Source of the DNA: Gemmatimonadota bacterium
GTDB taxonomy: Bacteria; Gemmatimonadota; Gemmatimonadetes; Gemmatimonadales; GWC2-71-9
Assembly: GCA_041691295.1 (NCBI GenBank)
Contig: JBEPVA010000001.1
Span: 6,008 to 70,007, forward strand
Reading direction: 5' to 3'
Length of the DNA: 64,000 bases
Position numbers and translations under genes: made by a program. Numbering within the stretch: position 1 is the stretch's first letter; each line of letters begins with the position of its first letter. This document shows positions 6,773-60,811 of this stretch, one piece after another. The notes below the pieces were generated by a model. The model did not search any database and was not told where the DNA came from. It was given only the letters and a program-made list of their open reading frames with translations.

Positions 6773-7198
6773 ATGGCCGAGCTGAGCATGATGGAGATGG
6801 GCTGGTCTGGTTCCGGTTGGATGGATCCCGCCCCGATGCCGCTTGATCCGGAGCCTGTCACCCCGGCGCCGACAATGCCGCCCCGACCGGCGCCGACCAT
6901 GAGCTCGCCACCGGCGGCGGCCGCCCCGAAGAAGCCAGCGGCCAAGAAGGCAGCCGCGAAGAAGCCGGCGAAGAAGAAGCCAGCGGCCAAGAAGGCGGCG
7001 GCCGCGAAGAAACCGGCGAAGAAGAAGCCGGCCAGGAAAGCCGCCAAGAAGAAGATCGTGAAGAAGGTGGCCAGGAAGCCGGCCAGGAAAGCCGCCAAGA
7101 AGGTCAAGAAGCCGGCCAAGAAGGCCGCCCGCAAGGCGGCGAAAAAGGCCGCCAGGAAGAGCGGCAAGAAAAAGGGCGGCAAGAAGAAGAAGCGGTAG
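6773..7198 (+). CDS. histone H1-like / AlgP-like lysine-alanine-proline repeat protein
   Basis: ATG 6773 is preceded by GGAGGAG (6760-6766). The C-terminal ~110 aa are almost only A/K/P in AAKKPA/KKAARK repeats. The ORF-track start at 6668 lacks an RBS. Confidence 0.75.
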   Translation: MAELSMMEMGWSGSGWMDPAPMPLDPEPVTPAPTMPPRPAPTMSSPPAAAAPKKPAAKKAAAKKPAKKKPAAKKAAAAKKPAKKKPARKAAKKKIVKKVARKPARKAAKKVKKPAKKAARKAAKKAARKSGKKKGGKKKKR

Positions 7199-10776: not shown

Positions 10777-10810
10777 CGCTTACGGCTTAAGGCTTACGGC
10801 TTATGGCTTC
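10777..10810 (+). repeat. heptamer tandem repeat GCTTANG x ~4.5
   Basis: gcttacg gcttaag gcttacg gcttatg gcttcac. The tract runs into the selD ATG (10803). Confidence 0.7.
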
Positions 10811-11930: not shown

Positions 11931-12092
11931 TTACGCACTCCTGCTTTTCAACATCCGGCGAATCACTACCTGCGCGGCGGCAACCGCGGCCGCCATCGCC
12001 GCAGCCTTCATAGCTTCCTTGCCTACCGCGGCCACCTTGCGGCGGGCGATCCGGCGTTTGGCCTTCTTGACTGCCTTCTTTACGGTACCCAT
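11931..12092 (-). CDS. small basic protein (53 aa), not in the ORF track
   Basis: ATG 12092 lies 6 nt after AGGAGAG. Hand translation: MGTVKKAVKKAKRRIARRKVAAVGKEAMKAAAMAAAVAAAQVVIRRMLKSRSA, ending at TAA 11931-11933. Confidence 0.45.
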   Translation of the reverse strand: MGTVKKAVKKAKRRIARRKVAAVGKEAMKAAAMAAAVAAAQVVIRRMLKSRSA

Positions 12093-14451: not shown

Positions 14452-15043
14452 TGAAAGCTGCCTCGGCAATGGCCAAGCCCGCCCCTCGCCCGGCGGCGCC
14501 GGCGGCCTGATCGAGATTCGCACGGTCGGCGCCATTCAGCGCCGCGATTTCTTCCTGCACGCTCCCGACACCACCAACAATCGCATGGCCCTGGCCGGCG
14601 CCATCGCCGCGCTGCAGCTGCTCGGCGCCAACAAGCAGCGCTGCAACATGCTGGTGGTGTCCGATTCGGAGTACCTGATCAAGGGGATGCGCGAGTGGGT
14701 GCAGGGCTGGATGAGACGGGGATGGAAACGGAAAGGCGGGGAGATCGAGAATCTGCAGCTGTGGCAGACCCTGGTGGGGTCGGCGGGCAAGCACGACGTG
14801 CAGTGGACCTGGGTGCGCGGCCATGTCGGTCATGCCAAGAACGAATACGCCAACGACCTTGCGGTCGGTGCGGCCACCCAGCAGGAAACGTCAGCGGGCA
14901 TCGTCGAGTCGGAGTTTCCAGCCTGGCTGGCCGCCAAGCGCGCCAAGGGGCAATACGGCAGTTACGATGAGGACGGGGCGTTCACCGCGTTTGAGCAGCG
15001 GCTGGCCGCCGGAGAGGCAATCCCGGGAGCCGAGGGGAAGTAG
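14426..15043 (+). CDS. rnhA: RNase HI homologue (atypical: conserved Glu replaced by Ala)
   Basis: Aligns by eye to E. coli RNase HI: LDESCLGNG, TTNNRMALAGAIAAL (E. coli has TTNNRMELMAAIVAL), VVSDSEYL, WVRGHVGHAKNEYANDLA. The start is uncertain; GTG 14426 is chosen and overlaps the Usp stop. There is a C-terminal extension. Confidence 0.75.
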   Translation: MPIAVLHLDESCLGNGQARPSPGGAGGLIEIRTVGAIQRRDFFLHAPDTTNNRMALAGAIAALQLLGANKQRCNMLVVSDSEYLIKGMREWVQGWMRRGWKRKGGEIENLQLWQTLVGSAGKHDVQWTWVRGHVGHAKNEYANDLAVGAATQQETSAGIVESEFPAWLAAKRAKGQYGSYDEDGAFTAFEQRLAAGEAIPGAEGK

Positions 15044-15084
15044 CTAGAAGCCCTCAGCCTTAAGCCGAGGCGGACTGAGCAGGA

Positions 15085-15603
15085 TCAGAGCGCGATAGCC
15101 GCCCGCTCTGCCGCACTGCTGTCGGGCCGGTCAACCGGGCGCGACTTGGATATCACGCTGATGGCCCCATTGTTTTCCAGCACCGCCACATGCACCTCGT
15201 CGATGCAGGTGCAGCCGCCCTGGCGCAGGGCCGCCTGGATTTCATGATGACTCAGGTTGGCGTTGGTCACCACTTCCTGGATCAGCTTGCCGTTGTGAAT
15301 CAGCACCTGCGGCCGCCCCTCGATCAGCGATTCCAGCTTCTTGCTGCGGAACGTCGCGTAGCCCACCGCGAAGTTGAGCGCCACCAGCGTCGCCGCCACC
15401 AGCAGCCCGCCGATCAGTGAATTATCCCCGCCATTCATCGAGTTCTGGACCGCGTTGGACAGGACCAGCAGCAGCACCAGGTCGAACGGCGCCAACTGGC
15501 CGACCTGCCGCTTGCCGGTGATCCGGAGCAGGACGAGCAGGAAGACGTAAACCACCAGTGCCCGGACGATCAGTTCCCACCAGGGGACGGCTAGCGAAAA
15601 CAT
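15085..15603 (-). CDS. DUF421 (YetF-like) membrane protein
   Basis: 172 aa. N-terminal TM helices and the LLRITGKRQVGQLAPFD block typical of the family. Confidence 0.8.
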   Translation of the reverse strand: MFSLAVPWWELIVRALVVYVFLLVLLRITGKRQVGQLAPFDLVLLLVLSNAVQNSMNGGDNSLIGGLLVAATLVALNFAVGYATFRSKKLESLIEGRPQVLIHNGKLIQEVVTNANLSHHEIQAALRQGGCTCIDEVHVAVLENNGAISVISKSRPVDRPDSSAAERAAIAL

Positions 15604-15620
15604 GCCTGGAACTCCCGGTT

Positions 15621-15661
15621 AAGGGCGGGAAAAGCGAAAAGAGAAAAGCGAAAGGGAGAGA
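15621..15661 (+). repeat. purine-rich heptamer arm (GAAAAGC family), left arm of 4HB cassette A
   Basis: gggaaaa gcgaaaa gagaaaa gcgaaag ggagaga. Positions 15634-15656 are complementary to 16112-16134. Confidence 0.8.
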
Positions 15662-15745
15662 CTCTGAGATCTATCGCGTCATTCCGACCAGCTCTCGCGT
15701 AATTGCGGTTACCCGAACGAGGTTGTCCGGTCGCATACTGTCCAC

Positions 15746-16102
15746 ATGAAGGACCACCGATCACTCAAGGCCTGGCAGGAAGCCCACCTCGTCGTAGTGG
15801 GCATTCTCAGGATCGCACGAGAATCATGGAGACCATGGGCGAGCGCAGTGTTCAGCCAGGTCCAGCGCGCCTCGTTGTCGGTGCAACTCAACATTGCCGA
15901 AGGCTGGACCTTTGGTGAATCGCCGACATCCACGCGCCACCTGAGTGTTGCCTATGGTTCAGTGGTCGAGACCCTTGACCTGCTGGATCTGATGATCGAG
16001 GCGCAGATTGCTCCGGAGGCCGAGCTTGCAACGCTGAAGAGCAATGCAGCACAATCTCAGCGCCCGCTACTCGGACTTCTCAAGCGGCGTCGACCGCTAT
16101 GA
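15746..16102 (+). CDS. four-helix-bundle protein (23S rRNA intervening-sequence protein / Avd-like family)
   Basis: 118 aa. Family pattern LKAWQEAH..., QVQRASLSVQLNIAEG, GSVVETLDLLDL. Confidence 0.85.
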   Translation: MKDHRSLKAWQEAHLVVVGILRIARESWRPWASAVFSQVQRASLSVQLNIAEGWTFGESPTSTRHLSVAYGSVVETLDLLDLMIEAQIAPEAELATLKSNAAQSQRPLLGLLKRRRPL

Positions 16103-16105
16103 GGT

Positions 16106-16143
16106 GCTTTTCCTTTTCGCATTTCTCTTTTCACTTTTCGCGC
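16106..16143 (+). repeat. pyrimidine-rich heptamer arm, right arm of 4HB cassette A
   Basis: gcttttc cttttcg catttct cttttca cttttcg. It starts 4 nt after the TGA. Confidence 0.8.
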
Positions 16144-16145
16144 TG

Positions 16146-17615
16146 TCAAGGCTTCAGGCTTTTCCCCGCCCTCATCCGGGCCTCGATATCGCTGATTTCC
16201 CGCGGCGCCTGTGACACCCGCTCCACTCCCGTTGGCGTCACGAAGTAATCGTCCTCGATCCGCACCCCGGTGTTCTTGTAGCGGGCCACTGCCACCCCGA
16301 TCTTGGCGATCATCTGCCGGTTCTTCGGCGTATCCGGCAGCCCTTCGAGGGCCGAGGCGCGGACGTAGAGACCGGGTTCGATGGTAAAGGCATCGCCGAG
16401 CTGGAAGGTGCGGGCCTCGAGGTCGCTGAACTGGGCCGGGTCGTGCACGTCGAGACCGAGCCCGTGACTGTAGCCGTGATATGAATACAGGTACCACTGG
16501 GGGCAGGCCTCACCTTCCTTGCGGTACGGCGGCCGGGTCGGACACAGTCCTTCCGGCGCGTCGAAGGTGGCATCGGCGCTCTCGATCAGCCCCAGCTTCA
16601 CCAGCCCGCGCACGATCACCATCCGGGCCGAATCGTAGGCTGCACTGCTCGTCGTACCCGGTTTGATCATCCGTTCCTCGGCCTTCTGGGCATCGAGTAC
16701 GACCTGGTAGACCGCCCGCTGGTCGGCACTGAAGACCCCGTTGACCGGAATAGTGCGGGTGATGTCAGCCGCATATCCGTCGTAGCTGCTGGCCACGTCC
16801 ATCAGGACCACTTCACCGTTCTGCATGATCCGTCGCCCGGCGTCGTAGTGCAGCGAGGTCGAGTTGGGACCCGACCCCACGATCGAGGAATAGGCCGGTC
16901 GGTCTCCGCCCAGGCGGCGAAAGGCGTATTCCGCCGAGGCCTGCACCTCGTACTCCGCCTTGCCAGCCCCGATCATCCGCAGCGCGGCCACGTGGCCCGA
17001 ATCGCTGATCTCGATGGCCTTCCGGAGCAGGGCCAGTTCGGCCGGACTGCGCTTGGCCCGCAACCGGTCGACCAGCGGCGTGCCGCGACGGACATCCAGG
17101 TTCGGGTGCGCCGCCTTGAGCCCGTTGACGATCAGCGAGCCGTAGGAGGCGGTGTCCCGGCGGGCAAACTCGTTGGCCACCGCATCGCTGATCACGTACA
17201 GGGGCAGCCCGCTGCCCGCCAGCGAATCGAGCAGCGGGGCCAGCCCGGCGCTGTACCGAACGTCCAGACCGGTCTCCTGTGCCAGCGCCACCGGATCGGT
17301 AGTCCTGCCACTGTACAGCGCCCCGCGCAGGTCGGTTGGCGGCACAAACAGCACCGCTTGCGAACTGCCGCCACGCTTGACCATGACCAGTGCGGCATCG
17401 GGATCGAGGTAGCCGGTCAGGTATCGGAATCCGGCGAGCTGCACAAAGGCGGGATAGTGAGCCAGCGGCTCCCGGGCCCCGGCGGAGAAGACGATGCCGC
17501 TGTCGACCTGCGCCAGCACCGCAGTGCGACGGGCGGCATAATCGGCCTGCGGAATCTGGGCCTGAAGAGCGGTAGCGGCCACCGCCGCCGCGCCGGCCAG
17601 GAGAGCGAGTCTCAT
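16146..17615 (-). CDS. Xaa-Pro aminopeptidase (M24B family), secreted
   Basis: Pita-bread metal-ligand blocks DVASSYDGYAADITRT, HGYSHGLGLDVHD and GVRIEDD. ATG 17615 forms an ATGA overlap with the upstream stop and gives the signal peptide MRLALLAGAAAVAATALQAQ. Confidence 0.85.
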   Translation of the reverse strand: MRLALLAGAAAVAATALQAQIPQADYAARRTAVLAQVDSGIVFSAGAREPLAHYPAFVQLAGFRYLTGYLDPDAALVMVKRGGSSQAVLFVPPTDLRGALYSGRTTDPVALAQETGLDVRYSAGLAPLLDSLAGSGLPLYVISDAVANEFARRDTASYGSLIVNGLKAAHPNLDVRRGTPLVDRLRAKRSPAELALLRKAIEISDSGHVAALRMIGAGKAEYEVQASAEYAFRRLGGDRPAYSSIVGSGPNSTSLHYDAGRRIMQNGEVVLMDVASSYDGYAADITRTIPVNGVFSADQRAVYQVVLDAQKAEERMIKPGTTSSAAYDSARMVIVRGLVKLGLIESADATFDAPEGLCPTRPPYRKEGEACPQWYLYSYHGYSHGLGLDVHDPAQFSDLEARTFQLGDAFTIEPGLYVRASALEGLPDTPKNRQMIAKIGVAVARYKNTGVRIEDDYFVTPTGVERVSQAPREISDIEARMRAGKSLKP

Positions 17616-18481
17616 CGGCCGGGCTTCCCGGCCTTGAACACCCAACTCAGCATCACCCGGCCGGTGATCGCGTCGGCCGGCGCCGTGTACGCCTCGGCGC
17701 TGATGAGCAGCCGGGGACTCGGCACGAAGCTGAAGCCGCCGTGGGCGGTGAACCGGGTCATGTTTGCCTCGATCTTCGTATTGTCGGTGGTTGAATCGGC
17801 CGTGACGTGACTGACCTGGAACCGCGGCCGGAGGAACGAAATACCGAGGCCCAGGTACGGAATGAAGCGGCCACTGGCCATCGTCCGGGCGACGCTAAAG
17901 TCGCCGCCGAACATCGTCGGCTTGAACTTGTCGTTCGAGACCTGGCTGTTGAAGCACTCGGAATTGGTGGGGCTGGCCACATCACCGGCCGAGCAGGTAA
18001 AGGCCCCTTTGACCGAGCCAAGCACGCCGAACAGCCGCAGGCGGGCCAGCCCGTTCTTGCCGGTCTGGGTGCTGCGACCGATCGCGAAGCTGACCAGATT
18101 CGACTTGACTCCGTTGACCCTGACCGGCGGAATCCAGCTCAGCTCGATGAACAGCCCCCGCTGACCGGACAGCAGCAGCCGGGGCCGGAACAGCACATTT
18201 TCCTGGTTGGTGTTGAGCGGTCCCTGGCCAGGCTGGCAGACGGTGGGGGTTCGACCGGCGGCGTTGAGATCCGGCACGTAGGTGGCCTCGAGCCCGAGTC
18301 GGATGCTGGCCAGCCGGTACGGCGCCGGCGCCTCCGCGGCATCAAAGGCGATCGGCACCATGTAATGGCCGAACAACTTGACCTCGTTCGAATTCTTGGC
18401 CGGTTTGCAGGCGTCTTGTGCCGAGGCGGCAATGGGCCAGGCGGCCGCGCCGACCAGCAGCGCGAGCAGGATCCTTCGCAT
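17612..18481 (-). CDS. secreted hypothetical protein, possible outer-membrane beta-barrel
   Basis: Signal peptide MRRILLALLVGAAAWPIAASAQ. Alternating hydrophobic strands. Family not recognised. Confidence 0.55.
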   Translation of the reverse strand: MRRILLALLVGAAAWPIAASAQDACKPAKNSNEVKLFGHYMVPIAFDAAEAPAPYRLASIRLGLEATYVPDLNAAGRTPTVCQPGQGPLNTNQENVLFRPRLLLSGQRGLFIELSWIPPVRVNGVKSNLVSFAIGRSTQTGKNGLARLRLFGVLGSVKGAFTCSAGDVASPTNSECFNSQVSNDKFKPTMFGGDFSVARTMASGRFIPYLGLGISFLRPRFQVSHVTADSTTDNTKIEANMTRFTAHGGFSFVPSPRLLISAEAYTAPADAITGRVMLSWVFKAGKPGR

Positions 18482-24508: not shown

Positions 24509-24628
24509 AGAGTTGGGAGTTTGGAGGCGGGAGTTGGGAGTTTTCGAGGCAATATAGGACGCCAGACATCCTACTGATTGCTGCGCTTCATTTGCGAGCC
24601 CCTAACTCCACACTCCTGACTCCTAACC
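24509..24628 (+). repeat. gene-less purine arm / pyrimidine arm pair (GAGTTGG family)
   Basis: Arm 24509-24544 reads gagttgg gagtttg gaggcgg gagttgg gagtttt and starts right after the TGA. A 53-nt spacer follows. Arm 24598-24628 reads cctaact ccacact cctgact cctaacc. About 18/25 positions are complementary. Confidence 0.7.
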
Positions 24629-24629
24629 G

Positions 24630-25532
24630 ATGACTGAGGACCGCCCACACGTCGGCATCCTCGGCGCCGGCCTGATGGGCTCAGGCATCGCGCAGGCATG
24701 CGCCGTGGCTGGGTATCAGACCACCGTGCGGGATATTTCCGACGAGCTGCTGGCGCGGGGGCGGGCGGGGATCGTGAAGTCGCTGGGCAAGCTGATCGAG
24801 AAGGGGAAGTTGACCGCGGCCGAGCGGGATGCCGCGCTGGCTCGGCTCAGCTTCACGACCGAACTCTCGGCGCTGGCGGACTCGGGGCTGGTCATCGAAG
24901 CGGTGACCGAAGATCTGGCCGTCAAGAATGAGCTATGGCGGGCACTCGACCGGTTGTGCGGTCCGGAGGCGATCTTCGCCTCCAACACGTCGAGCCTGTC
25001 GATCGCCTCGATGGCGGCGACCACCCGGCGGCCGGATCGATTCGTCGGGCTGCATTTCTTCAATCCAGTCCCGTTGATGCCGCTGGTCGAGGTGGTCCGA
25101 ACCGCCACCACCAGTGACGAGAGCTTTGACCGGGCCATGGCGTTCGGCAGCAGCCTCGACAAGGAGGTCGTGGCGGCCAGGGACACCCCGGGCTTCATCG
25201 TCAACCGGCTGCTGGTGCCCTATCTGCTGGATGCCATGCGCGCCGTTGAACAGGGCACCGCGTCGACCGCCGATATTGATACCGCCATGAAGCTCGGCGC
25301 CGGTCACCCGATGGGGCCGCTCCTCCTGGCCGACCTCGTCGGCCTCGACACCCTGGCCAGGGTCGCCGGGATAATGTTCGCCGAGTATCGGGAAGACCGT
25401 TATGCTCCACCAGCGATACTCGAACGGATGGTCGGGACCGGGATGCTGGGCCGGAAGAGCGGAATGGGATTTTATGACTACGCTACAGATCCGCCCATGC
25501 CCGTCGATCGCAACAAACTGCGTGAGAGGTAA
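24630..25532 (+). CDS. hbd: 3-hydroxybutyryl-CoA dehydrogenase
   Basis: Motifs GILGAGLMGSGIAQ, ASNTSSLSI, HFFNPVPLMPLVEV, PGFIVNRLL. Confidence 0.9.
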   Translation: MTEDRPHVGILGAGLMGSGIAQACAVAGYQTTVRDISDELLARGRAGIVKSLGKLIEKGKLTAAERDAALARLSFTTELSALADSGLVIEAVTEDLAVKNELWRALDRLCGPEAIFASNTSSLSIASMAATTRRPDRFVGLHFFNPVPLMPLVEVVRTATTSDESFDRAMAFGSSLDKEVVAARDTPGFIVNRLLVPYLLDAMRAVEQGTASTADIDTAMKLGAGHPMGPLLLADLVGLDTLARVAGIMFAEYREDRYAPPAILERMVGTGMLGRKSGMGFYDYATDPPMPVDRNKLRER

Positions 25533-25610
25533 GAAGTGAGAGGTGAGAGGGCACTGAGATGAGCCTCCTTTTACCTGTTACCTCTCACCTGTCACCCCTC
25601 ACCTCAACCC
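25521..25610 (+). repeat. gene-less purine arm / pyrimidine arm pair (GTGAGAG family) overlapping the hbd stop
   Basis: Purine arm: cgtgaga ggtaaga agtgaga ggtgaga ggg. Pyrimidine arm: ttacctg ttacctc tcacctg tcacccc tcacctc. Positions 25522-25539 pair with 25571-25588 at 15/18. Confidence 0.75.
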
Positions 25611-26222: not shown

Positions 26223-26733
26223 CACGAGGTGGCGGGTGCTGGGGCTGGTGGCACTCGGCGCCTGTGCGCCGGGTTCAACCAGGCCGCCGTTCAATCCGTC
26301 GCCGGCGTCGCCGTCGATCGAGCTGGGGTTGGTGCGGGCCGATGCGATTGGAAAGGTGGCCGACGCGCTCAAGGCCGACAGCATTCCGCTGGAACGGGTC
26401 GAGACCCGTGATGCCTGGCTCGAAACGCCCTGGTTCAACCAGGCCACCAACAAGCCGGAGGGAAAGCGGGCAGCCGGCTACAACGCCGTCCGGATTCGGG
26501 CCTGGGCCGAGCCGGGCCGGGCACTGCATAGCGAAGTGATCATCGAGGCCGTCTACAAGCCGGCCGCCGATCCTTCAGTGCCCGGGCGTTCGCTCGAGCG
26601 GCTCCTGCCAGCGAGTCATCCCATGGCCGTCCGTCTGGCCGCGATCGTGAAGGAACTGGTCAAGACCTACGGGGATCCGACGGCGGCGGACAGCACGGCG
26701 CCGGGGCTTCCGAGTCGCAAGCCGAAAACTTAG
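26209..26733 (+). CDS. hypothetical lipoprotein
   Basis: Leader ..VLGLVALGAC with a lipobox. No family recognised. Confidence 0.55.
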   Translation: MIHISTRWRVLGLVALGACAPGSTRPPFNPSPASPSIELGLVRADAIGKVADALKADSIPLERVETRDAWLETPWFNQATNKPEGKRAAGYNAVRIRAWAEPGRALHSEVIIEAVYKPAADPSVPGRSLERLLPASHPMAVRLAAIVKELVKTYGDPTAADSTAPGLPSRKPKT

Positions 26734-26760
26734 GAGAGAGGAAAGCAGAGAGGAAAACCT
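26734..26760 (+). repeat. purine-rich heptamer-like tract directly after a stop codon
   Basis: TAG then gagagag gaaagca gagagga aaacc. Confidence 0.5.
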
Positions 26761-26818
26761 GTTCCGCCCTTTTCATTTGTGCAGCTCCTTGAGCTGCGTC
26801 AGTTCAAGCTTTCTGAAG

Positions 26819-28144
26819 TCATTCTGTCAACTCTGGAGGATTGCCGCTTGGGGGCGAATGCGGCGGTCTCTGCACCTCCATGTCAGGCTTATGAACAACC
26901 TGCATTAGTGCGCGGCCCAAGAAGCGGTCGTCAATCCCAAGTTCAAAGCGGTATTGCCCAGCGACCAGAAACCGTGGATTCCCAAGCGGGACCTTAATAA
27001 AATCTGTTGTGTCCATTCCAGAAATGTCGGAAATCACATAATTGCGGTGCGATTCAAAGACGGCAATCAACATGCCTTGGGGGTCAATTATTCGGAGCTG
27101 AACCGTGTGGCTTCCGGTGGAATCCGCAGGGATCGTCAAACGCGCCAAGAAAGACAAGTCTCCCGCTTCGACTGGAAGAAGTATGGTCTCGATTAAGTCA
27201 ATCTCGGAGAAAATAGTCATCGCGCCCCCCGGCTCGTGCCTGAACTTGCGACAGATCACAGCATAAGAGCAGTTTATCCTCAGCGCATTGATGGGCTGTC
27301 CTCCCGCACCGACGAAGTGTACAGGTTGCCCCGCAAACATTTCTATTCGGCTAAGGCTCGGATAGGTTGTAATGGCTTTAACATTTCGACCCGGCAGGTC
27401 ATAGGTGGTCGACCATTGCCCACCGTGGAAGTCCCAGCACCTAATCCGGATCGCGCTGCCGACGCCGACCAACTCGAGATGTTTTTTATCGGCCAAGCCC
27501 AGAAACCTCCCGACCCTTGTTTCACCGCGGGGAATCGCACCAACTGTCCGTTCTGCAATTGTCTCGGACAGAGGGACAACTCCGGTCATATCTCCGCCTA
27601 ACACAATGCCATCACCGGTCGCGGAGGCCGTGAGCTCGATTGGCTCATGACCGGGCGCGAATAGATGACACTCCCATCTGCTCACCGATCCTGTCTCACC
27701 CAGATTGGTTACGGCAACGGTGGCGGCGAGCGCCATGGCTACCCGTCCATCCTGATATACGGCGTGGCCCGGCATAACTCTGTCCGGGAAACTCAGAATG
27801 AGATTCGGGCGTCGGGTTAGCTTCGCCAGCTCGCGCTCCAAGTTCTCGTTTTTCACTTCCGCGGACGTCAGAAGGTTGTACCAGCCGCGGAAGCTCCGTC
27901 CGACCAGCGCAGCAACGATGATTAAACCGGTAATCCAAATGCTATAAGATTGGGCTCTCTGCTCGTCCACTTGGCCATAGTACCTCTTCCAGTTTAGGAG
28001 CCAAATGGCGAGTGCGCAGAGGCCAGCGAACAAGTCGGCAGAGCCGCTTTGAGCGCTAAGTGACGCAGCGATCCATCGTCGTGCAATCGACGGTCTATTA
28101 CTCGTTGGTGGCGTGTCAACGCGACGACTGTTTGTTAGTGGCAA
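26819..28144 (-). CDS. membrane-anchored protein of unknown function (lower-GC gene)
   Basis: TTG 28144 lies 8 nt after GAGGAGG. 441 aa. Two N-terminal TM helices, a short coiled segment EVKNENLERELAKLTRR, then ~330 aa with no motif recognised. Confidence 0.6.
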   Translation of the reverse strand: MPLTNSRRVDTPPTSNRPSIARRWIAASLSAQSGSADLFAGLCALAIWLLNWKRYYGQVDEQRAQSYSIWITGLIIVAALVGRSFRGWYNLLTSAEVKNENLERELAKLTRRPNLILSFPDRVMPGHAVYQDGRVAMALAATVAVTNLGETGSVSRWECHLFAPGHEPIELTASATGDGIVLGGDMTGVVPLSETIAERTVGAIPRGETRVGRFLGLADKKHLELVGVGSAIRIRCWDFHGGQWSTTYDLPGRNVKAITTYPSLSRIEMFAGQPVHFVGAGGQPINALRINCSYAVICRKFRHEPGGAMTIFSEIDLIETILLPVEAGDLSFLARLTIPADSTGSHTVQLRIIDPQGMLIAVFESHRNYVISDISGMDTTDFIKVPLGNPRFLVAGQYRFELGIDDRFLGRALMQVVHKPDMEVQRPPHSPPSGNPPELTE

Positions 28145-28294
28145 GAGCGAGTCCTCCTCTTGTCTCTGCTTTGGGTAGCGAAATGGGCTCCCGAGTGGTG
28201 TGTAGGCTGGATGCGCCGTTGCCGAATTAACCTACACAGTGGTGACCTACCAAGGCTCAGCCTGCCTGATAGCGCATCCTACCACTCTGTGCCT

Positions 28295-29281
28295 TCAGTT
28301 GGTCGCAACCGTGCCCATAGCCACCACCTCGAAGCTGCTCCCCTTCACACCCTTCAATTCGTTGAGCTCGTCGTCGCTCCAGCGGGGATCGGGAGCGCCG
28401 GAGAAATACCAGTTACTGCCGTTGTCGGCCACGATCATCCCGTAGGTCTTCATGGCCTGGAGGATGACCCGGGCGGTCGGCGAAAATCCGCTGATATCGT
28501 AACTGGCCTTGAGCCGGACCCGCATGCCCATCGGCGGCAGGTTGACGCTGGTGGAACTGCTGGCCGCGTGGCGGGCCGGCGCGATGAAGCCGTGGCGTGA
28601 GTGGACCACCGTGAACCGGATGGCGTGGTTGATCGCGCCGGCGGTCACGGCCTCGTCATACCGCACCAGCCCCGGAAAGATCGGCAGCCCGGCGGCATCG
28701 GCCGAGGTCCAGCCGGCCGGGCGGAGGCTGTTGCTGGCGAGGTCGAAGACGGCGCCACTTCCGGCGGTCCAGCCGCCATGCCCGTCCGGGTAGGCGGCGT
28801 ACAATTCGTACAGCTTCCAGGCGTCCCGGTCGATGATCAGGATATGGCGGTCGCCACCGCTCGAGGCGCCCCCTTCGATCGGCGCACCGGCCGGGATCGG
28901 GTACGGCCCGGGATCGCTTTCGTCAGCATAGTCGAAGGACACCGGCACCCAATGGGTCGAGTCGCTGACGACGATATACGGAATGCCGAATGGCGAGCCA
29001 CCCAGATCGGCCCCGAAGTCGGGATGCAGCCCGGTATTGAGCCCGATGCCGGCGATCAGGTTGTCGGAGTTGGGGTCGACGGGCCGGCTGTCGATGGCGG
29101 TGTTCCAGGGATTGTCATCGGGAAAGGGCCGCCGGCCGTTGAGGCTGGCATTGATCCCGATTCCCGTGGTGTCGGTGTCCGGGTGGTGATTGATGCCGGT
29201 GCTGCCGCCGTCCTGCCCGCAGCCGATCAAGCCGAACAGACCCAGAAGCGTCAACAGGCGGTATGGAGTCATGGGGTGCAT
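28295..29281 (-). CDS. conserved-looking secreted lipoprotein, family not recognised
   Basis: Leader MHPMTPYRLLTLLGLFGLIGC. RBS GGAAGG. Conserved-looking blocks GWTSADAAGLPIFPGLVRYDE, HAIRFT and YGMIVADNGSNWY. Confidence 0.7.
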   Translation of the reverse strand: MHPMTPYRLLTLLGLFGLIGCGQDGGSTGINHHPDTDTTGIGINASLNGRRPFPDDNPWNTAIDSRPVDPNSDNLIAGIGLNTGLHPDFGADLGGSPFGIPYIVVSDSTHWVPVSFDYADESDPGPYPIPAGAPIEGGASSGGDRHILIIDRDAWKLYELYAAYPDGHGGWTAGSGAVFDLASNSLRPAGWTSADAAGLPIFPGLVRYDEAVTAGAINHAIRFTVVHSRHGFIAPARHAASSSTSVNLPPMGMRVRLKASYDISGFSPTARVILQAMKTYGMIVADNGSNWYFSGAPDPRWSDDELNELKGVKGSSFEVVAMGTVATN

Positions 29282-31154: not shown

Positions 31155-31180
31155 GCCGTTAGCCGTTAGCCATTAGCTGA
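31155..31180 (+). repeat. heptamer tandem repeat GCCGTTA x3
   Basis: gccgtta gccgtta gccatta gctga, 10 nt after the rSAM stop. Confidence 0.65.
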
Positions 31181-52916: not shown

Positions 52917-52923
52917 CGGGCTA

Positions 52924-52978
52924 GGCGGGCGGGCGGGCGGGCGGGCGGGCGGGCGGGCGGGCGGGCGGGCGGGCGGGC
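52924..52978. repeat. (GGGC)n tetranucleotide tract, ~13 units; distal arm of 4HB cassette B
   Basis: ggcgggcgggc... spans 55 nt and starts 8 nt after the SusD stop. It is complementary to 53521-53535, allowing one G:U pair. Confidence 0.85.
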
Positions 52979-53005
52979 CGAAGCTGCCTGCACCGCCACA
53001 AACCA

Positions 53006-53437
53006 TCAAGTCATCGATTGGGCAGGTGGAGTCTTCGACTCCCCGGCCCTTTTGGCTACAGCGGCGTAAAGGCCCCAAGTTAGCCGAGTCGCATGATCCC
53101 TGAGCGCCTCAATCTCACCGTATTTCTCGGCACTTGTGTATTCCAAGTCTCTAGAGAGCAAGAGAAGGTAGGAAAGTTCGGACAATGAGCCGAGCGAAAT
53201 ATCCAAGTATCGACGAAACTCTCGGCTCCCGCGTTTGGCGCAACCCTCGGCGATATTGACCACGGCCGAGACTGCGGCACGGCGAGCCTGGGAAGTCAGT
53301 CCGTAGACCTCGAATTTCGGCCACGACTCGGTCGCGCGGTACGTCGCCAGCGCAAGGTCGTGGCAAGCGACCCAGGCAGTGAATCGCTCGTATGGCTTGC
53401 CAGGGCGTTTCTTAGAAGACTTGATCGTATTGAGCAT
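53006..53437 (-). CDS. four-helix-bundle protein (23S rRNA IVS protein / Avd-like family), second copy
   Basis: The start is taken at the internal ATG 53437. Family pattern FTAWVACHDLALATY, SQARRAAVSAVVNIAEG, GSLSELSYLLLLS. Confidence 0.8.
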   Translation of the reverse strand: MLNTIKSSKKRPGKPYERFTAWVACHDLALATYRATESWPKFEVYGLTSQARRAAVSAVVNIAEGCAKRGSREFRRYLDISLGSLSELSYLLLLSRDLEYTSAEKYGEIEALRDHATRLTWGLYAAVAKRAGESKTPPAQSMT

Positions 53438-53518
53438 ACGATACAGTAGGACCGCCGATGACACTCCGCATAACCGAAACTTTGCGCTGATACCCAAAAC
53501 AACGCCGTAGTCGTCTTT

Positions 53519-53544
53519 CTGCCCGCCTGCCCGCCTGCCCCCCC
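53519..53544. repeat. GCCCGCCT repeat; proximal arm of 4HB cassette B
   Basis: ctgcccgcctgcccgcctgccccccc. On the gene's sense strand this is a purine arm ~80 nt upstream of the ATG. Confidence 0.8.
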
Positions 53545-53568
53545 AAGGTATCCGTTCTCGCCGAATGC

Positions 53569-56582: not shown

Positions 56583-56665
56583 GCCTTTTCGCTTTTCGCT
56601 TTTCGCTTTTCGCTTTTCGTTGTTCGCCCTCTCACCTCTTACCTCTTACCTCTCACCTTTTACGA
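56583..56665 (-). repeat. composite heptamer tract (GTGAGAG family then GAAAAGC family on the sense strand), overlapping a stop codon
   Basis: The plus strand reads CTTTTCG x4-5, then ccctctc acctctt acctctt acctctc. Positions 56626-56656 are 29/31 identical (as reverse complement) to 25522-25552. Confidence 0.8.
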
Positions 56666-57965: not shown

Positions 57966-58004
57966 GGGCAGATCGGCTTCCCGTGGCTATTCAATAGTCA
58001 GTGA

Positions 58005-58046
58005 CCCTCGACCCTCGACCCTCGACCCTCGACTCTAGACTCTACA
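58005..58046 (-). repeat. heptamer tandem repeat CCCTCGA x4 + CTCTAGA + CTCTACA (GTCGAGG family on the sense strand)
   Basis: Overlaps the TAG stop (58042-58044) of the DUF3565-like gene. Confidence 0.85.
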
Positions 58047-58230
58047 CTCCGCCACAGAGCCGACATTCCAGCTCCATCCCAATCTTGCCGTCGCGCCCAT
58101 CCGGCGTGGTGACCCATTCCCGAACCTGCCACGGCGGATCGTGCCTCACGTGCTGGTTGTGGCCACACTCAAGCTCAGCCACCCACTGTTGCTCGGCATC
58201 GAGATGAAACCCGGTGATTTTCCGGCGCAT
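58042..58230 (-). CDS. DUF3565-like small protein
   Basis: 62 aa from the internal ATG 58230. WVAELECGHNQHVRHDPPWQVREWV...ELECRLCGG matches the family pattern. Confidence 0.6.
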   Translation of the reverse strand: MRRKITGFHLDAEQQWVAELECGHNQHVRHDPPWQVREWVTTPDGRDGKIGMELECRLCGGV

Positions 58231-58236
58231 AGCTAT

Positions 58237-58272
58237 TCGCCCGTCTCGCCCGTCTCGCCCGTCTCGCCTGTC
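58237..58272 (-). repeat. 9-nt tandem repeat TCGCCCGTC x4
   Basis: Fills nearly the whole 49-bp spacer between the upstream stop (58280) and the DUF3565-like start. Confidence 0.8.
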
Positions 58273-58279
58273 CTCCCCC

Positions 58280-60811
58280 TCACTCCGCCCTATCCGCAAA
58301 CACCTTCCGCGCCACCGTCAGCTGGACCTGCACCTTGTCCCGTTCGATCTCGCTATTGAACTCGGGATACCGCTTGACCCCTTCGATCAACCGGTCGATC
58401 CAATCACGAAAAAAGGCCGCGTCAGCCTTTGACCGGATAAGCTGACCGCCGACAAAGAGATAGATTGGACTGGTGGTCCCGTAGGGATAGACATCCAGCA
58501 CTGGAAAGCGAACGCTGTCCCCGATGGCCCGGACCAGGTACCAGCCGCTCCCGGTAACCGGCAGGACCACGGTGCCGCGGAACCGCATCCTGGAACCGGT
58601 GAGTGGAAATGTGGCCACCACCTTCCCGTTCCCCACGATTTCGAGCCGCTCGACCGGGACGTACGACGTCAACGAAACTCGGGCGACGACCGACCTGGTG
58701 CTGGCGTCAACCTTGACATCACTGCCGATCGGCTGACCATTGAGCGCAAAGTCGAGCAACGGCCCATTGGTGGCAAAGGTACGGCCCGCGGTGAGTCCCG
58801 CATAGAACCGGTCCCGATCGAGCCCGCCAGGTCCCGCCTTTACATAAACCCGATCCATCCCGACCGGTCCTCGCATGCTGGCATAGTTGGCCATCGCGTC
58901 GGTACCCGCGCCCGCCGGCAGCTTGAAGCCGCAGTTGAGCGCCTTGTACCAGATCACGGCGTTCGCCATGTAGTCGTCGACGAAGCCCAGGGCCTCGAAA
59001 TAGTCGATCTTGCCGAGGGCCAGGTCGGCCGGGAACTCGTCCTTGAGTGCGACCGTCGTGTCGGCCGGATCGATGGGACCGTCGAACGGATGCACATACC
59101 CCGTGATTCCACCCTGCGCCCTGGCCTGATCATGTACCTCGGCGTTGGTGGGCCAGAGACTCGAAGCGGCGGTATGGGTGTAACCCGCGTAGCCAGGCAG
59201 GATGATGTTGTGGCGCAGGCCGAGCAGGCCGGTGTGTCCCCAGTAGCTGGTGTGGTACTCCTGATCGTGCAGGATCAGCGTCTCAGGATCGGAAACCTTA
59301 TCGGGCTTGCCGGTGAACAGCTCGATGTCCGGCACCCGGCCTTCCTTGTTGACGATCAGGTCCTCGACGACATGGAGATCCTCCGCCTTGGCCTGGAGTG
59401 CCAGGTGGCCAGCCGTATTGTGATACCAGCCGCCGTAGTTCATGTGGACGTGCAGGTCGCCACCATACCACCCGAGGGCGGGAAGGTTGGTGAGGCGGCG
59501 AAGCCGGATCGAAAGCAGCCTGGGGCTGGTACCGATTTCGATTGTGCCGCGCGCGGGGACATACTCCGGGCCGCGCGATATCTCGTACTGATAGTGGCCG
59601 GCCGGCAGGGAAATTCTGGCGGTGCCGGTGGTGTGGAAGTAGCCGTACTCCATCTGCTGGGTCCTGGGGTCGGAACTGTCATCGGCGTGGCGCCAGGCAT
59701 CGTCGGGCACCCAGCTCCGTCCGTTGGCGCCAAGCAATGATACGCGCGCAGGGGTCGGCTTCCCGGTCGCCGCATCCACCACAATAAGCGATAGCAAGGT
59801 GTGCGGCTGCAGGAACCGGCGCTCCTTGATCACGAGCGTGTCGATCCGCCCGCCTGGAACCGTCACGAATCGGAGGGAGGTGTTCCCCTCCTCGTTGCCA
59901 ATGAAGCCGATCTTCGTCCCGTTAGGAGACCAGCGCGGATTCACGGCGTCGAATTCGCCGAAGGTCAGCTGAAACGGGTTGAGGCCCGTGGCAGGCATGA
60001 TCCAGAGCTGGTGCCATTGCCGCCCCTGGTAGGAGGCGTACACAATCCGGCCATCCCGCGCCCAATCGGGATGGGTCCGCCAGTTGGTTTCCTCGTCGTG
60101 GACCAGGCTCAGCTCGGCACCACTATCGGCCTTCATCCGCCAGAGTGCACCGGTGCCCCAGATGTGCCCCTGATTGGAGACGACCAGCAGCTCCTTGCCG
60201 TCGGGCGACCAGGCCGGCGACAGGTAGTGGTCATACACGCTGTAGTAGTACCTGGGCAGGGTGCTGTCATGGCGGTCGGTCAGGCGGACAGGCGGGCGGG
60301 CGGACCGATCGGCCAGGTAGATGTGCCAGCGGCCTTCGAACAGGGTGGAGACGTACACGATCTGCGTGCCATCCGGTGACCAGCGCGGCTCGACATTGAC
60401 CGCGCCGTTCTCAACCAGCGCCGAGTCCTGGCCATTGGTCAGATCGAGCAGCCGGAGACTCATGGTCTTGCCGTCGTATCGCACGAACACCACGCGTCTC
60501 CCGTCGGGTGACCAGTCCGGCTGATAGTCGTAGCCAGGCCCGTCGCTGAGTTGGAGGGCCGTCGTGGTGCCAACCTTCTGCCGCCACAACGTCCCCTGCA
60601 TCGAGTAGATGATCTCGGTCCCGTCCGGCGACCAGGCCAGGGCACTCGGACCACTGGTGGCCTGGGGGAGATACATCTCGCGGAAGTAATAGGGGTGCGG
60701 GACCTTGATTTGCGGAAGCACGTAGGCGCGCTGCCCGTGAGCCACCGCGGGAAACAACCACAGCAGCAGGCCGCAGAAGCACGCGGACGAGCGCGGACCG
60801 ATCAGTCTCAT
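58280..60811 (-). CDS. PD40/TolB-like beta-propeller fused to a PHP/CehA-type metallohydrolase domain
   Basis: Signal peptide MRLIGPRSSACFCGLLLWLFPAVAHG. PD40 repeats (WSPDGTEIIYS, WSPDGRRVVFV, WSPDGTQIVYV, WSPDGKELLVV, WSPNGTKIGFI). GGDLHVHMNYGG block. Confidence 0.8.
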   Translation of the reverse strand: MRLIGPRSSACFCGLLLWLFPAVAHGQRAYVLPQIKVPHPYYFREMYLPQATSGPSALAWSPDGTEIIYSMQGTLWRQKVGTTTALQLSDGPGYDYQPDWSPDGRRVVFVRYDGKTMSLRLLDLTNGQDSALVENGAVNVEPRWSPDGTQIVYVSTLFEGRWHIYLADRSARPPVRLTDRHDSTLPRYYYSVYDHYLSPAWSPDGKELLVVSNQGHIWGTGALWRMKADSGAELSLVHDEETNWRTHPDWARDGRIVYASYQGRQWHQLWIMPATGLNPFQLTFGEFDAVNPRWSPNGTKIGFIGNEEGNTSLRFVTVPGGRIDTLVIKERRFLQPHTLLSLIVVDAATGKPTPARVSLLGANGRSWVPDDAWRHADDSSDPRTQQMEYGYFHTTGTARISLPAGHYQYEISRGPEYVPARGTIEIGTSPRLLSIRLRRLTNLPALGWYGGDLHVHMNYGGWYHNTAGHLALQAKAEDLHVVEDLIVNKEGRVPDIELFTGKPDKVSDPETLILHDQEYHTSYWGHTGLLGLRHNIILPGYAGYTHTAASSLWPTNAEVHDQARAQGGITGYVHPFDGPIDPADTTVALKDEFPADLALGKIDYFEALGFVDDYMANAVIWYKALNCGFKLPAGAGTDAMANYASMRGPVGMDRVYVKAGPGGLDRDRFYAGLTAGRTFATNGPLLDFALNGQPIGSDVKVDASTRSVVARVSLTSYVPVERLEIVGNGKVVATFPLTGSRMRFRGTVVLPVTGSGWYLVRAIGDSVRFPVLDVYPYGTTSPIYLFVGGQLIRSKADAAFFRDWIDRLIEGVKRYPEFNSEIERDKVQVQLTVARKVFADRAE

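Follow-up and report, generated by a model that had tools for sequence, protein, structure and literature searches.

Why should a gene family known from the intervening sequences (IVSs) of 23S rRNA lie between two protein-coding genes, closed in by repeats that are complementary to each other? The question is raised by a 64,000-nucleotide stretch of DNA from a Gemmatimonadota bacterium (GenBank assembly GCA_041691295.1, contig JBEPVA010000001.1; hereafter the window), in which a gene for a four-helix-bundle (4HB) protein of the PF05635 family and its two repeat arms form a unit that we call cassette A. The origin and function of IVSs that carry an open reading frame (ORF) have been a question since 1993, and for PF05635, a family with thousands of members and solved structures, we know of no function outside diversity-generating retroelements (DGRs). 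An earlier note, made from the letters of the window alone, had described cassette A as an IVS-like stem-gene-stem module outside rRNA that might be mobile. Our analysis leads us to read it, with somewhat more confidence than doubt, as a non-rRNA copy of the ORF-bearing 23S rRNA intervening-sequence element, made up of the arms and the PF05635 gene.

Cassette A is a PF05635 gene closed by a heptamer stem

Cassette A has four parts:

15625-15657, + strand, 5' purine-rich arm (inverted repeat I1 of the inverted-repeat finder: 33 nt, 88% complementary)
15658-15745, + strand, leader of 88 nt between the purine arm and the ATG
15746-16102, + strand, four-helix-bundle protein gene (118 amino acids, PF05635/TIGR02436)
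16111-16143, + strand, 3' pyrimidine-rich arm (CTTTTCN heptamers; first base 8 nt past the TGA)

The purine arm consists of ~4.5 heptamers (GAAAAGC, GAAAAGA, GAAAAGC, GAAAGGG), and Tandem Repeats Finder reports a period of 7 in both arms, with 3.6 copies in the purine arm and 4.9 copies (16107-16139) in the pyrimidine arm. Over their full 33 nt the arms pair with 29 Watson-Crick pairs and 1 G:U pair, giving cassette A the long closing stem from complementary ends that is typical of IVSs (33 bp, 30 pairs). The 23-nt pairing described earlier (15634-15656 with 16112-16134) was reproduced exactly, at 20 Watson-Crick pairs plus 1 G:U; the arms themselves stand, and their limits, previously set at 15621-15661 and 16106-16143, are now those listed above. 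A weaker outer inverted repeat (15614-15633 / 16161-16180, 85% complementary) has its 3' half within the neighbouring coding region.

The arm duplex has a predicted energy of -64.6 kcal/mol when formed by the gene strand and of -63.6 kcal/mol when formed by the opposite one. On both strands the arm stem closes the minimum-energy RNA fold of 15600-16160, and this fold is more stable than shuffled sequence, with z-scores of -3.45 (+ strand) and -4.38 (- strand) and 0 of 100 shuffles equal; the stem thus withstood a comparison that the earlier note had named as able to refute it. Because purine and pyrimidine tracts are partly complementary from composition alone, we also shuffled the pyrimidine arm 1000 times with its base composition kept. 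The arms of cassette A score 46, against 14.9±2.7 in the shuffles (maximum 25, n=1000). Their pairing is not due to chance.

The encoded protein (protein A) exceeds the curated cut-offs of both family profiles, PF05635 (E 5e-16, 59.2 bits, cut-off 33.8) and TIGR02436 (E 1e-14, 54.5 bits, cut-off 24), and is related by a profile match over residues 2-113 (E 1e-20) to XCC0516, a solved pentameric four-helix-bundle protein (PDB 2gsc). These matches support the four-helix-bundle identity first proposed from the translation. Protein A contains the Q/GxxRxxxSxxxNIAEG motif, of which Q38, R41, S45, N49, I50 and G53 are invariant in a 19-sequence alignment and E52 is kept in at least 90%, and it ends in a basic KRRRP tail. 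Its homologues at 50-70% identity all come from Gemmatimonadales. The leader of cassette A has no Shine-Dalgarno sequence. It contains a GGTTAC-type motif, which also occurs ~40 nt 5' of the ATG in related cassettes; we do not claim this TTGG/GGTTAC motif as a promoter, its distance to any -10-like element being unfit for a standard one.

Most related genes in Gemmatimonadales carry matched arms

We scanned one genome per species for homologues of protein A and obtained 79 loci, nearly all in metagenome-assembled genomes (MAGs) of Gemmatimonadales; a scan of viral contigs gave no relatives. At the 69 loci with enough flank, both cassettes of the window counted in (cassette B is described below), the 300 nt preceding each gene were aligned to the 200 nt following it, taken as reverse complement, and a locus was called armed at a score of at least 30. 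Complementary arms, purine-rich on the 5' side and pyrimidine-rich on the 3' side, were present at 61 of the 69 loci, and direct-orientation controls scored at most ~24, one repeat-rich locus excepted. The median armed locus has a paired arm of 34 nt, 84 nt between arm and ATG, 13 nt between stop codon and arm, and a total length of 542 nt. Summed over the 61 loci, the upstream arms contain 1108 G, 730 A, 248 C and 232 T. The repeat period is 7 at 50 loci and 8 at 5. Units vary from locus to locus (CGAAAAG, GGGAGAC, GTGAACA, CGGTGAG, GGTGAGA, GAGAAGT and others), and the two arms of one locus agree. Cassette A has all the features common to the 61 armed loci and to the copies from other phyla considered below.

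When every upstream arm was compared with every downstream arm, a locus's own pyrimidine arm was the best partner in 43 of 61 cases and among the top three in 59, with a mean score of 56 for own partners and 16 across loci; cassettes A and B each rank their own partner first. Judged by these alignment scores, own-partner specificity amounts to covariation of the arms across the family. Unit similarity follows protein similarity (Spearman -0.22; 0 of 500 permutations as extreme), indicating that arms are inherited with the gene and yet drift fast.

Could the arms be a coincidence of abundant repeats? Period-7 arrays are indeed very common, accounting for 252 of the 668 tandem repeats in 486 kb, with 101 arrays outside cassettes, and hairpins without a gene exist. 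Against this stand the matched arms at fixed distances in 61 of 69 PF05635 genes and around almost no other gene, the high own-partner specificity, and the recurrence of the design in seven phyla. We therefore regard coincidence, together with the conventional transposon discussed in the next section, as very improbable.

The cassette is a discrete unit

We compared flanks with interiors among the 61 armed loci. Two loci from different genomes (L002/L003) are 90% identical over 522 nt, from purine arm to pyrimidine arm, and have unrelated flanks; two contigs of one MAG (L017/L024) are likewise 90% identical over an arm-bounded 620 nt in unrelated surroundings. Such arm-bounded homology bears out the suggestion of a mobile cassette. 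An empty orthologous site, which the earlier note had advised looking for, was also found: at L006/L021 the cassette lies between two co-directional genes that at L016/L044 abut via an overlapping ATGA stop/start, with no cassette and no repeat, neither gene nor arms being there. A unit of ~600 nt was thus gained or lost at an operon junction that is translationally coupled where the cassette is absent.

This unit could be a conventional transposon, or a MITE (a miniature type of transposable element with inverted repeats), with the arms as terminal inverted repeats. However, arms differ between copies in one genome, those of cassettes A and B being unrelated repeats where an insertion sequence or MITE would have related ones, and no transposase accompanies them. 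No target-site duplication was visible when the filled (L006/L021) and empty (L016/L044) sites were compared, the sequences being too diverged for a precise junction.

Cassettes also invert. The flanks of L040 and L041 are 89% identical and their cassettes 84% identical but inverted, with breakpoints in the arms, and the L018 cassette is inverted relative to those of L012 and L028. Because the arms are reverse complements of each other, inversion restores the same layout. These inversions could point to a segment that acts only as DNA, an invertible or cruciform-forming element whose arms flip the gene for phase variation and in which RNA pairing is irrelevant. The concerted evolution of both arms would fit, as would their mismatches, among which G:U-compatible changes number 73 for the gene strand and 70 for the opposite one, with no sense-strand bias. 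We nevertheless think this unlikely: no recombinase gene lies nearby, the arms are variable simple repeats and not conserved recombinase sites, and the design also functions in 23S rRNA, a setting in which inversion would be lethal. Moreover, most orthologous groups share one orientation and the downstream neighbour is convergent at 51 of 59 loci, a bias that free switching would erase.

In two pairs (L016/L044 and L036/L049) the flanks are 84-89% identical and the 4HB proteins 66-73% identical, with a synonymous divergence (dS) of 1.6-2.2, and a one-base difference in the unit runs through all repeats of the two arms. This is replacement or accelerated change at a fixed site. As the divergence of the protein there greatly exceeds that of the flanks, the arms may only seem to have evolved in concert, the whole cassette having perhaps been replaced. 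Nine orthologue pairs had an estimable dS, and in all of them the ratio of nonsynonymous to synonymous divergence (dN/dS) is 0.06-0.15; such purifying selection means that the gene is a working one and not a relic. The cassette is thus a discrete unit that is present or absent, is copied to unrelated sites, can be flipped, and has its protein kept by selection.

The same design occurs in other phyla and inside 23S rRNA

We surveyed other phyla by running tblastn on plasmid records and inspecting the flanks of the hits. In all, we saw the cassette design in seven bacterial phyla. The copies inspected include the following:

Anabaena sp. 90, cas6/cas4 junction: (GGTGACA)n / (CTGTCAC)n
Calothrix: (GGGTGTA)n / (TACACCC)n
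Pseudanabaena, cas6/cas4 junction: repeats partly direct, not inverted
Geminocystis and Stanieria (Cyanobacteriota): armed cassettes
Picosynechococcus, cas10/cmr3 junction: armed
Nostoc flagelliforme: (TAATTCG)n, arm score 65
Planktothrix, DrmD/PglX junction: armed
Bernardetia and Riemerella (Bacteroidota): armed
Treponema (Spirochaetota) and Chlorohelix (Chloroflexota): armed
Gemmatirosa kalamazoonensis, cultured: arm score 61

In the same survey, Monoglobus, the gamma plasmid of Nostoc PCC 7120, Oscillatoria and Calothrix PCC 7716 showed no clear inverted arm pair. Copies in the other phyla are mostly sense-oriented within operons and have no leader; in Xanthomonas, N. flagelliforme and Picosynechococcus the start codon abuts the arm or lies inside it. 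In Xanthomonas, homologues of XCC0516 sit between accB and accC, where the accB stop is followed by an arm of ~4 GGGAATC-type units with the GTG start codon inside it, and ~4 CCCATTC-type units end at the accC ATG. The accB/accC site and the GGGAATC-type unit recur in Lysobacter and Dyella.

Two loci show variants of the design. The Chlorohelix locus (L099) has a composite block of ~100 nt, containing a small heptamer hairpin, that is directly repeated on both sides of the gene, and the Oscillatoria locus (L106) has purine-type arrays in direct orientation on both flanks.

One plasmid hit, on p2 of Azospirillum lipoferum, belongs to a true 23S rRNA gene (Rfam LSU_rRNA_bacteria, 1024 bits), and the IVS of this gene places a PF05635 ORF between CAGAGGACGGATGACAGAGGACGGAGGACAGAA and CCGTCCTCTGTCTTCTGTCATCCGTCTTCTG, that is, between purine and pyrimidine heptamer arms. 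RNase III requires a stem of at least ~22 bp in its substrates. The helix-45 IVS of Coxiella has a 28-bp terminal stem whose cleavage by RNase III was shown experimentally, and its 5' end carries two or three tandem GACAGAT heptamers, the number varying by strain (PMC4990558). Known 23S rRNA IVSs (Leptospira, Coxiella with its S23p ORF, A. lipoferum) and the cassette thus have in common a PF05635 ORF and a stem of 28-33 bp, and both have purine heptamers on the 5' side, their pyrimidine complement on the 3' side and an overall length of ~430-540 nt. The layout shared by the Azospirillum and Coxiella IVSs and by 61 of 69 stand-alone homologues supports the earlier description of a stem-gene-stem module outside rRNA.

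The differences lie in setting and detail. The IVSs are in rRNA, whereas cassette A occupies the gap between the aminopeptidase and YetF genes, antisense to the two; the start codon adjoins the heptamers or falls within them in the Coxiella IVS and in Xanthomonas, whereas cassette A has its 88-nt leader; and excision by RNase III has been demonstrated for rRNA copies only. Because the location in rRNA that defines an IVS is lacking, we class cassette A not as an IVS but as an IVS-type element in a new setting.

Cassettes fill spacers between genes but avoid divergent promoters

The genes flanking cassette A are both antisense to its gene, so that it occupies a co-directional gene junction, an arrangement found again at L006/L021:

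15085-15603, - strand, YetF/DUF421 membrane protein gene; ATG 10-20 nt from the purine arm
16146-17645, - strand, aminopeptidase P (M24) gene; stop codon 2 nt past the pyrimidine arm

Across the spacer, the aminopeptidase stop (16146) is followed by the end of the pyrimidine arm (16143) and, at the far side, by the start of the purine arm (15625, or 15614 with the outer extension); a GGGAG Shine-Dalgarno sequence of the YetF gene is retained between the purine arm and its ATG at 15603. Further out lie genes for an ornithine cyclodeaminase (OCD), a Usp protein and an RNase H. The site is not a 23S rRNA helix (25 or 45), where IVSs are inserted: its neighbours are protein-coding, and Rfam gave no rRNA and no other family either at a permissive threshold on 15000-16800 or at the gathering threshold on the whole 64-kb window. 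Pfam found no reverse-transcriptase or transposase domain in the five nearest neighbour genes (12.2-18.5 kb), in keeping with the earlier statement that rRNA, reverse transcriptase and transposase are absent nearby, and no direct repeat longer than 20 nt was found within 15500-16300.

Across the family, we called the orientation of neighbours by a heuristic based on GC content at third codon positions (GC3), with the cassette gene as +. Arrangements (+,-) and (-,-), the latter that of cassette A, were found 26 and 23 times, (+,+) 8 times, and the divergent (-,+) not once. Cassettes lie in intergenic spacers, including junctions within operons, and fill them, the arms mostly starting no more than ~20 nt from the flanking stop or start codons.

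Orientation is also a property of the repeats. All hairpins and cassettes examined are purine-first on both strands, with the purine arm 5' and the pyrimidine arm 3', and period-7 arrays that adjoin a stop codon are purine-rich on the sense strand of that gene in 53 cases against 4 (486 kb). Together with the lack of cassettes between divergent genes, this polarity could suggest a transcription insulator, in which outgoing transcripts with a C-rich, G-poor repeat would load Rho and incoming ones would carry the G-rich repeat. We hold this to be improbable: at operon sites where the downstream gene is essential or needed (accB/accC, cas6/cas4, cas10/cmr3) the cassette cannot be a strong barrier, the scan of 15000-16800 showed no terminator-like signal, and the idea is inferential throughout. 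We rejected an intrinsic bidirectional terminator on account of the ~450-nt loop.

Arm-type repeats also occur without the gene

The window holds a second cassette, hairpins without a gene, and solo arrays with no complementary partner nearby:

52920-53545, - strand, cassette B, PF05635 (ORF 53006-53437)
53517-53544, - strand, upstream G-rich arm of cassette B (arm pair 28 nt, 86% complementary)
52920-52982, - strand, downstream arm of cassette B, (GCCC)n in gene-strand reading
24509-24549 and 24600-24629, gene-less hairpin, (GAGTTGG)n, loop ~50 nt
25520-25551 and 25569-25606, gene-less hairpin, (GTGAGAG)n, loop ~18 nt, overlapping the upstream stop codon
12171-12251, 26724-26761, 56584-56661, 60271-60303, 10778-10809 and 31155-31177, solo arrays

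The ORF of cassette B was found by a phmmer search of six-frame ORFs (E 7e-7 to protein A), and its protein matches PF05635 with an E-value of 4e-28. Its neighbours are genes for a SusD-like protein and a multicopper oxidase. The earlier note had named a lack of arms at other copies as able to refute its reading; cassette B has arms, with a different repeat: they are of (GGGC)n type with period 4/8, unlike the heptamers of cassette A. The two gene-less hairpins exactly fill the spacers between three co-directional genes (24509-24629 and 25520-25606), fold with z-scores of -3.6 to -4.9 on either strand, and may be non-autonomous relatives of the cassette. Solo arrays, where checked, start right past a stop codon and are purine-rich on the strand of that gene; the (CGAAAAG)5 at 56585 shares its unit with cassette A and the (GGCG)8 at 60271 with cassette B. 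On a metagenome contig related to the aminopeptidase locus of the window (L084), three tandem CTCCCGA units at ~760-800 lie within an apparent thiC coding region, so heptamer arrays can also lie in frame inside genes.

The wider distribution of arrays raises a further possibility, compatible with the intervening-sequence reading, namely that protein and repeats are partners as in a REPIN/RAYT system (hairpin-forming doublets of repetitive extragenic palindromic sequences and their associated tyrosine transposase). The 4HB pentamer would bind tandem heptamers, one subunit per unit, through a GNGA core; this putative binding would make the arms the protein's own sites and the solo and hairpin arrays its other targets, at mRNA 3' ends or in DNA, with the stem secondary. 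Several observations point this way. In Xanthomonas the arms around the 4HB gene are of the GGGAATC type, which is the dispersed heptamer of that genome, and unit and site are conserved in Xanthomonas, Lysobacter and Dyella. In Gemmatimonadales, 23 of 54 non-arm arrays share the unit of the local cassette, compared with 9.5±3.7 under locus permutation, and solo arrays of the window match cassettes A and B, as described above. The commonest array length is 4-5 units, which can be set beside the pentamer of XCC0516, and the protein is under strong purifying selection and has a basic KRRRP tail. Of 50 units, 35 contain a G-N-G-A-[AG] core (null 17±2.8) and 25 contain GTGA (null 4.2), both against a null that ignores shared ancestry.

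The disregard of shared ancestry also counts against the motif as evidence, and the match between arrays and cassettes could reflect one dominant repeat unit per genome. Moreover, orthologous sites can differ in their units and yet have similar proteins, the two cassettes of one 64-kb window use unrelated units, and Coxiella has a single IVS. We therefore treat the partnership as a possibility to which we give less credence than to the intervening-sequence reading. In its broadest form PF05635 pentamers would be dedicated partners of heptamer repeats, and IVSs, cyanobacterial short tandemly repeated repetitive (STRR) sequences, GGGAATC arrays and 'cas-associated' 4HB genes would be one family, in which gene-bearing cassettes would be autonomous, gene-less hairpins and solo arrays non-autonomous, and the protein a non-enzymatic RNA- or DNA-binding ring; this generalisation, too, is tentative and has the odds against it.

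A proposed route to tolerance and movement

Read as an intervening-sequence element, cassette A would work at two levels. On RNA, a transcript crossing the whole cassette on either strand would carry both arms and could form the ~33-bp stem, which host RNase III would cut by analogy with the Coxiella IVS. Cutting would remove or insulate the insert and leave the flanking cistrons usable, which would account for its tolerance in rRNA helices and operons and its avoidance of divergent promoter regions. On DNA, the arms could serve as substrates for homologous recombination, giving inversion and replacement at a fixed site, and gene-less heptamer hairpins with the same unit are perhaps landing sites into which cassettes are captured; such recombination would explain how cassettes move with no transposase and become inverted, and why they have units in common with arrays nearby. 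For cassette A we infer both the cutting of the stem by RNase III and this route of movement. For the Gemmatimonadales clade we suppose that the gene probably has a promoter of its own in the ~84-nt leader, a proposal made because most copies are antisense to or convergent with their neighbours.

Several points weigh against this reading. If the promoter is in the leader, the gene's own mRNA would be left without the 5' arm, and a consensus scan of 15000-16800 for sigma-70 promoters and intrinsic terminators found neither. The symmetric mismatches mean that pairing of the sense RNA is not specifically supported, and upkeep at the DNA level would account for the arms just as well. The cutting of a stem leaves the heptamer period, the purine-then-pyrimidine polarity, the semi-conserved GNGA core and the many solo arrays unexplained, and arm-type repeats are not exclusive to the PF05635 gene, as the gene-less and solo arrays of the window show. 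Order-wide vertical retention at accB/accC in Xanthomonadales looks more like a host function than like a selfish insert. Finally, no empty site of cassette A itself was found: a metagenome scan with the aminopeptidase returned seven loci, and the best (76% and 70% identity) have no cassette downstream but, with synteny not kept there, do not count as empty sites.

Relation to known repeat and retroelement systems

The DGR accessory protein Avd belongs to the same Pfam family as protein A, has the same pentameric four-helix-bundle fold, is small and basic, and functions together with nucleic acid; PF05635 has been cited in connection with Avd (PMC10053308). Cassette A differs from a DGR in having no adjoining reverse transcriptase and no template/variable repeat pair, its neighbours being the YetF, M24, OCD, Usp and RNase H genes named above.

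Among known repeats, the arms resemble the cyanobacterial STRR sequences and the GGGAATC and GGGGA(C/T)T arrays of Xanthomonas and Nostoc, which, like the arms, are tandem heptamers of mostly 4-5 units in intergenic positions. Arrays of this type are often convergent inverted pairs, are transcribed and vary between close relatives (PMC4692102); in Xanthomonas, GGGAATC has ~186 genomic sites, of which 70-75 occur as convergent pairs (Rehm et al., 2015, PMC4692102). That paper makes no mention of PF05635 or XCC0516 and reads the repeats as G-quadruplex formers, which the arms of cassette A (CGAAAAG) cannot be. We rejected the G-quadruplex as a general explanation of arms, many units (CGAAAAG, GTGAACA, GAGAAGT) having no G-runs.

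The likeness to REPIN/RAYT systems lies in one protein gene with inverted short repeats that are also dispersed intergenically as gene-less hairpin doublets, and in long-term vertical inheritance. There, however, the protein is a Y1/HUH transposase and the repeat a fixed palindrome, whereas here there is only PF05635 with tandem heptamers, and cassette units vary within one genome. In the full-text literature, which excludes most subscription journals, we found no description of complementary heptamer arms around stand-alone PF05635 genes and no link of dispersed heptamer repeats to PF05635. If the design is general, the rRNA IVSs, the over-abundant heptamer repeats of cyanobacteria and xanthomonads and the role of PF05635 become one puzzle that is directly testable; if our reading is true, it offers a way for a gene to live within operons and rRNA without a transposase.

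PF05635 genes at defence-operon junctions

PF05635 genes occur at junctions of defence operons (L088, L090, L105, L098, L108, L099): twice at cas6/cas4, and at cas10/cmr3, hsdS/hsdR, DrmD/PglX and DUF1156/Swt1-HEPN. Most of these copies carry heptamer arms, which suggests insertions at operon junctions; the hsdS/hsdR copy has no clear arms. Genes called 23S_rRNA_IVP have been listed as a cas-linked functional component (Zhang et al., 2013, PMC3936711; Altae-Tran et al., 2023, PMC10910872). They belong to the same gene family and lie at the cas6/cas4 or the cmr2/cmr3 junction, and such copies here carry heptamer arms; these 'CRISPR-associated' genes can alternatively be read as opportunistic insertions into operon junctions. 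If this reading is true, PF05635 genes in CRISPR-Cas, restriction-modification and DISARM/BREX operons may be tolerated insertions and not components of the systems.

A clade of 116-amino-acid PF05635 proteins, 90-97% identical across many Nostocales genera, uses another vehicle (L102 on pGamma of Nostoc PCC 7120; L114-L123 on Nostoc punctiforme-type contigs). All copies fetched lie directly downstream of an ISL3-family transposase gene and have a downstream pyrimidine heptamer array only. The clade is apparently an insertion-sequence passenger, and because it adjoins this transposase gene we set it aside as multi-copy evidence for the cassette.

Other repeats and small ORFs of the window

Two small ORFs of the window, with no Pfam match where tested, also lie between arrays, in direct and not inverted orientation. 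One is a 53-amino-acid Lys/Ala-rich ORF (11931-12092, - strand) with purine-type arrays on both sides, the other a Cys/His-containing ORF of ~62 amino acids (58042-58230, - strand) that has a period-9 array (58237-58272) on one side and a heptamer array (58003-58033) on the other. Right after the solo array at 26724-26761 starts a low-GC island (26750-28400; GC 0.52-0.59, compared with 0.64-0.70 around it), which may be horizontally acquired DNA. Tandem repeats at 6923-7165 (15 nt in 7.2 copies and 12 nt in 8.8 copies) belong to a tract that runs on to 7198 (…AAGAAGAAGAAGCGGTAG) and may encode a repetitive basic protein tail.

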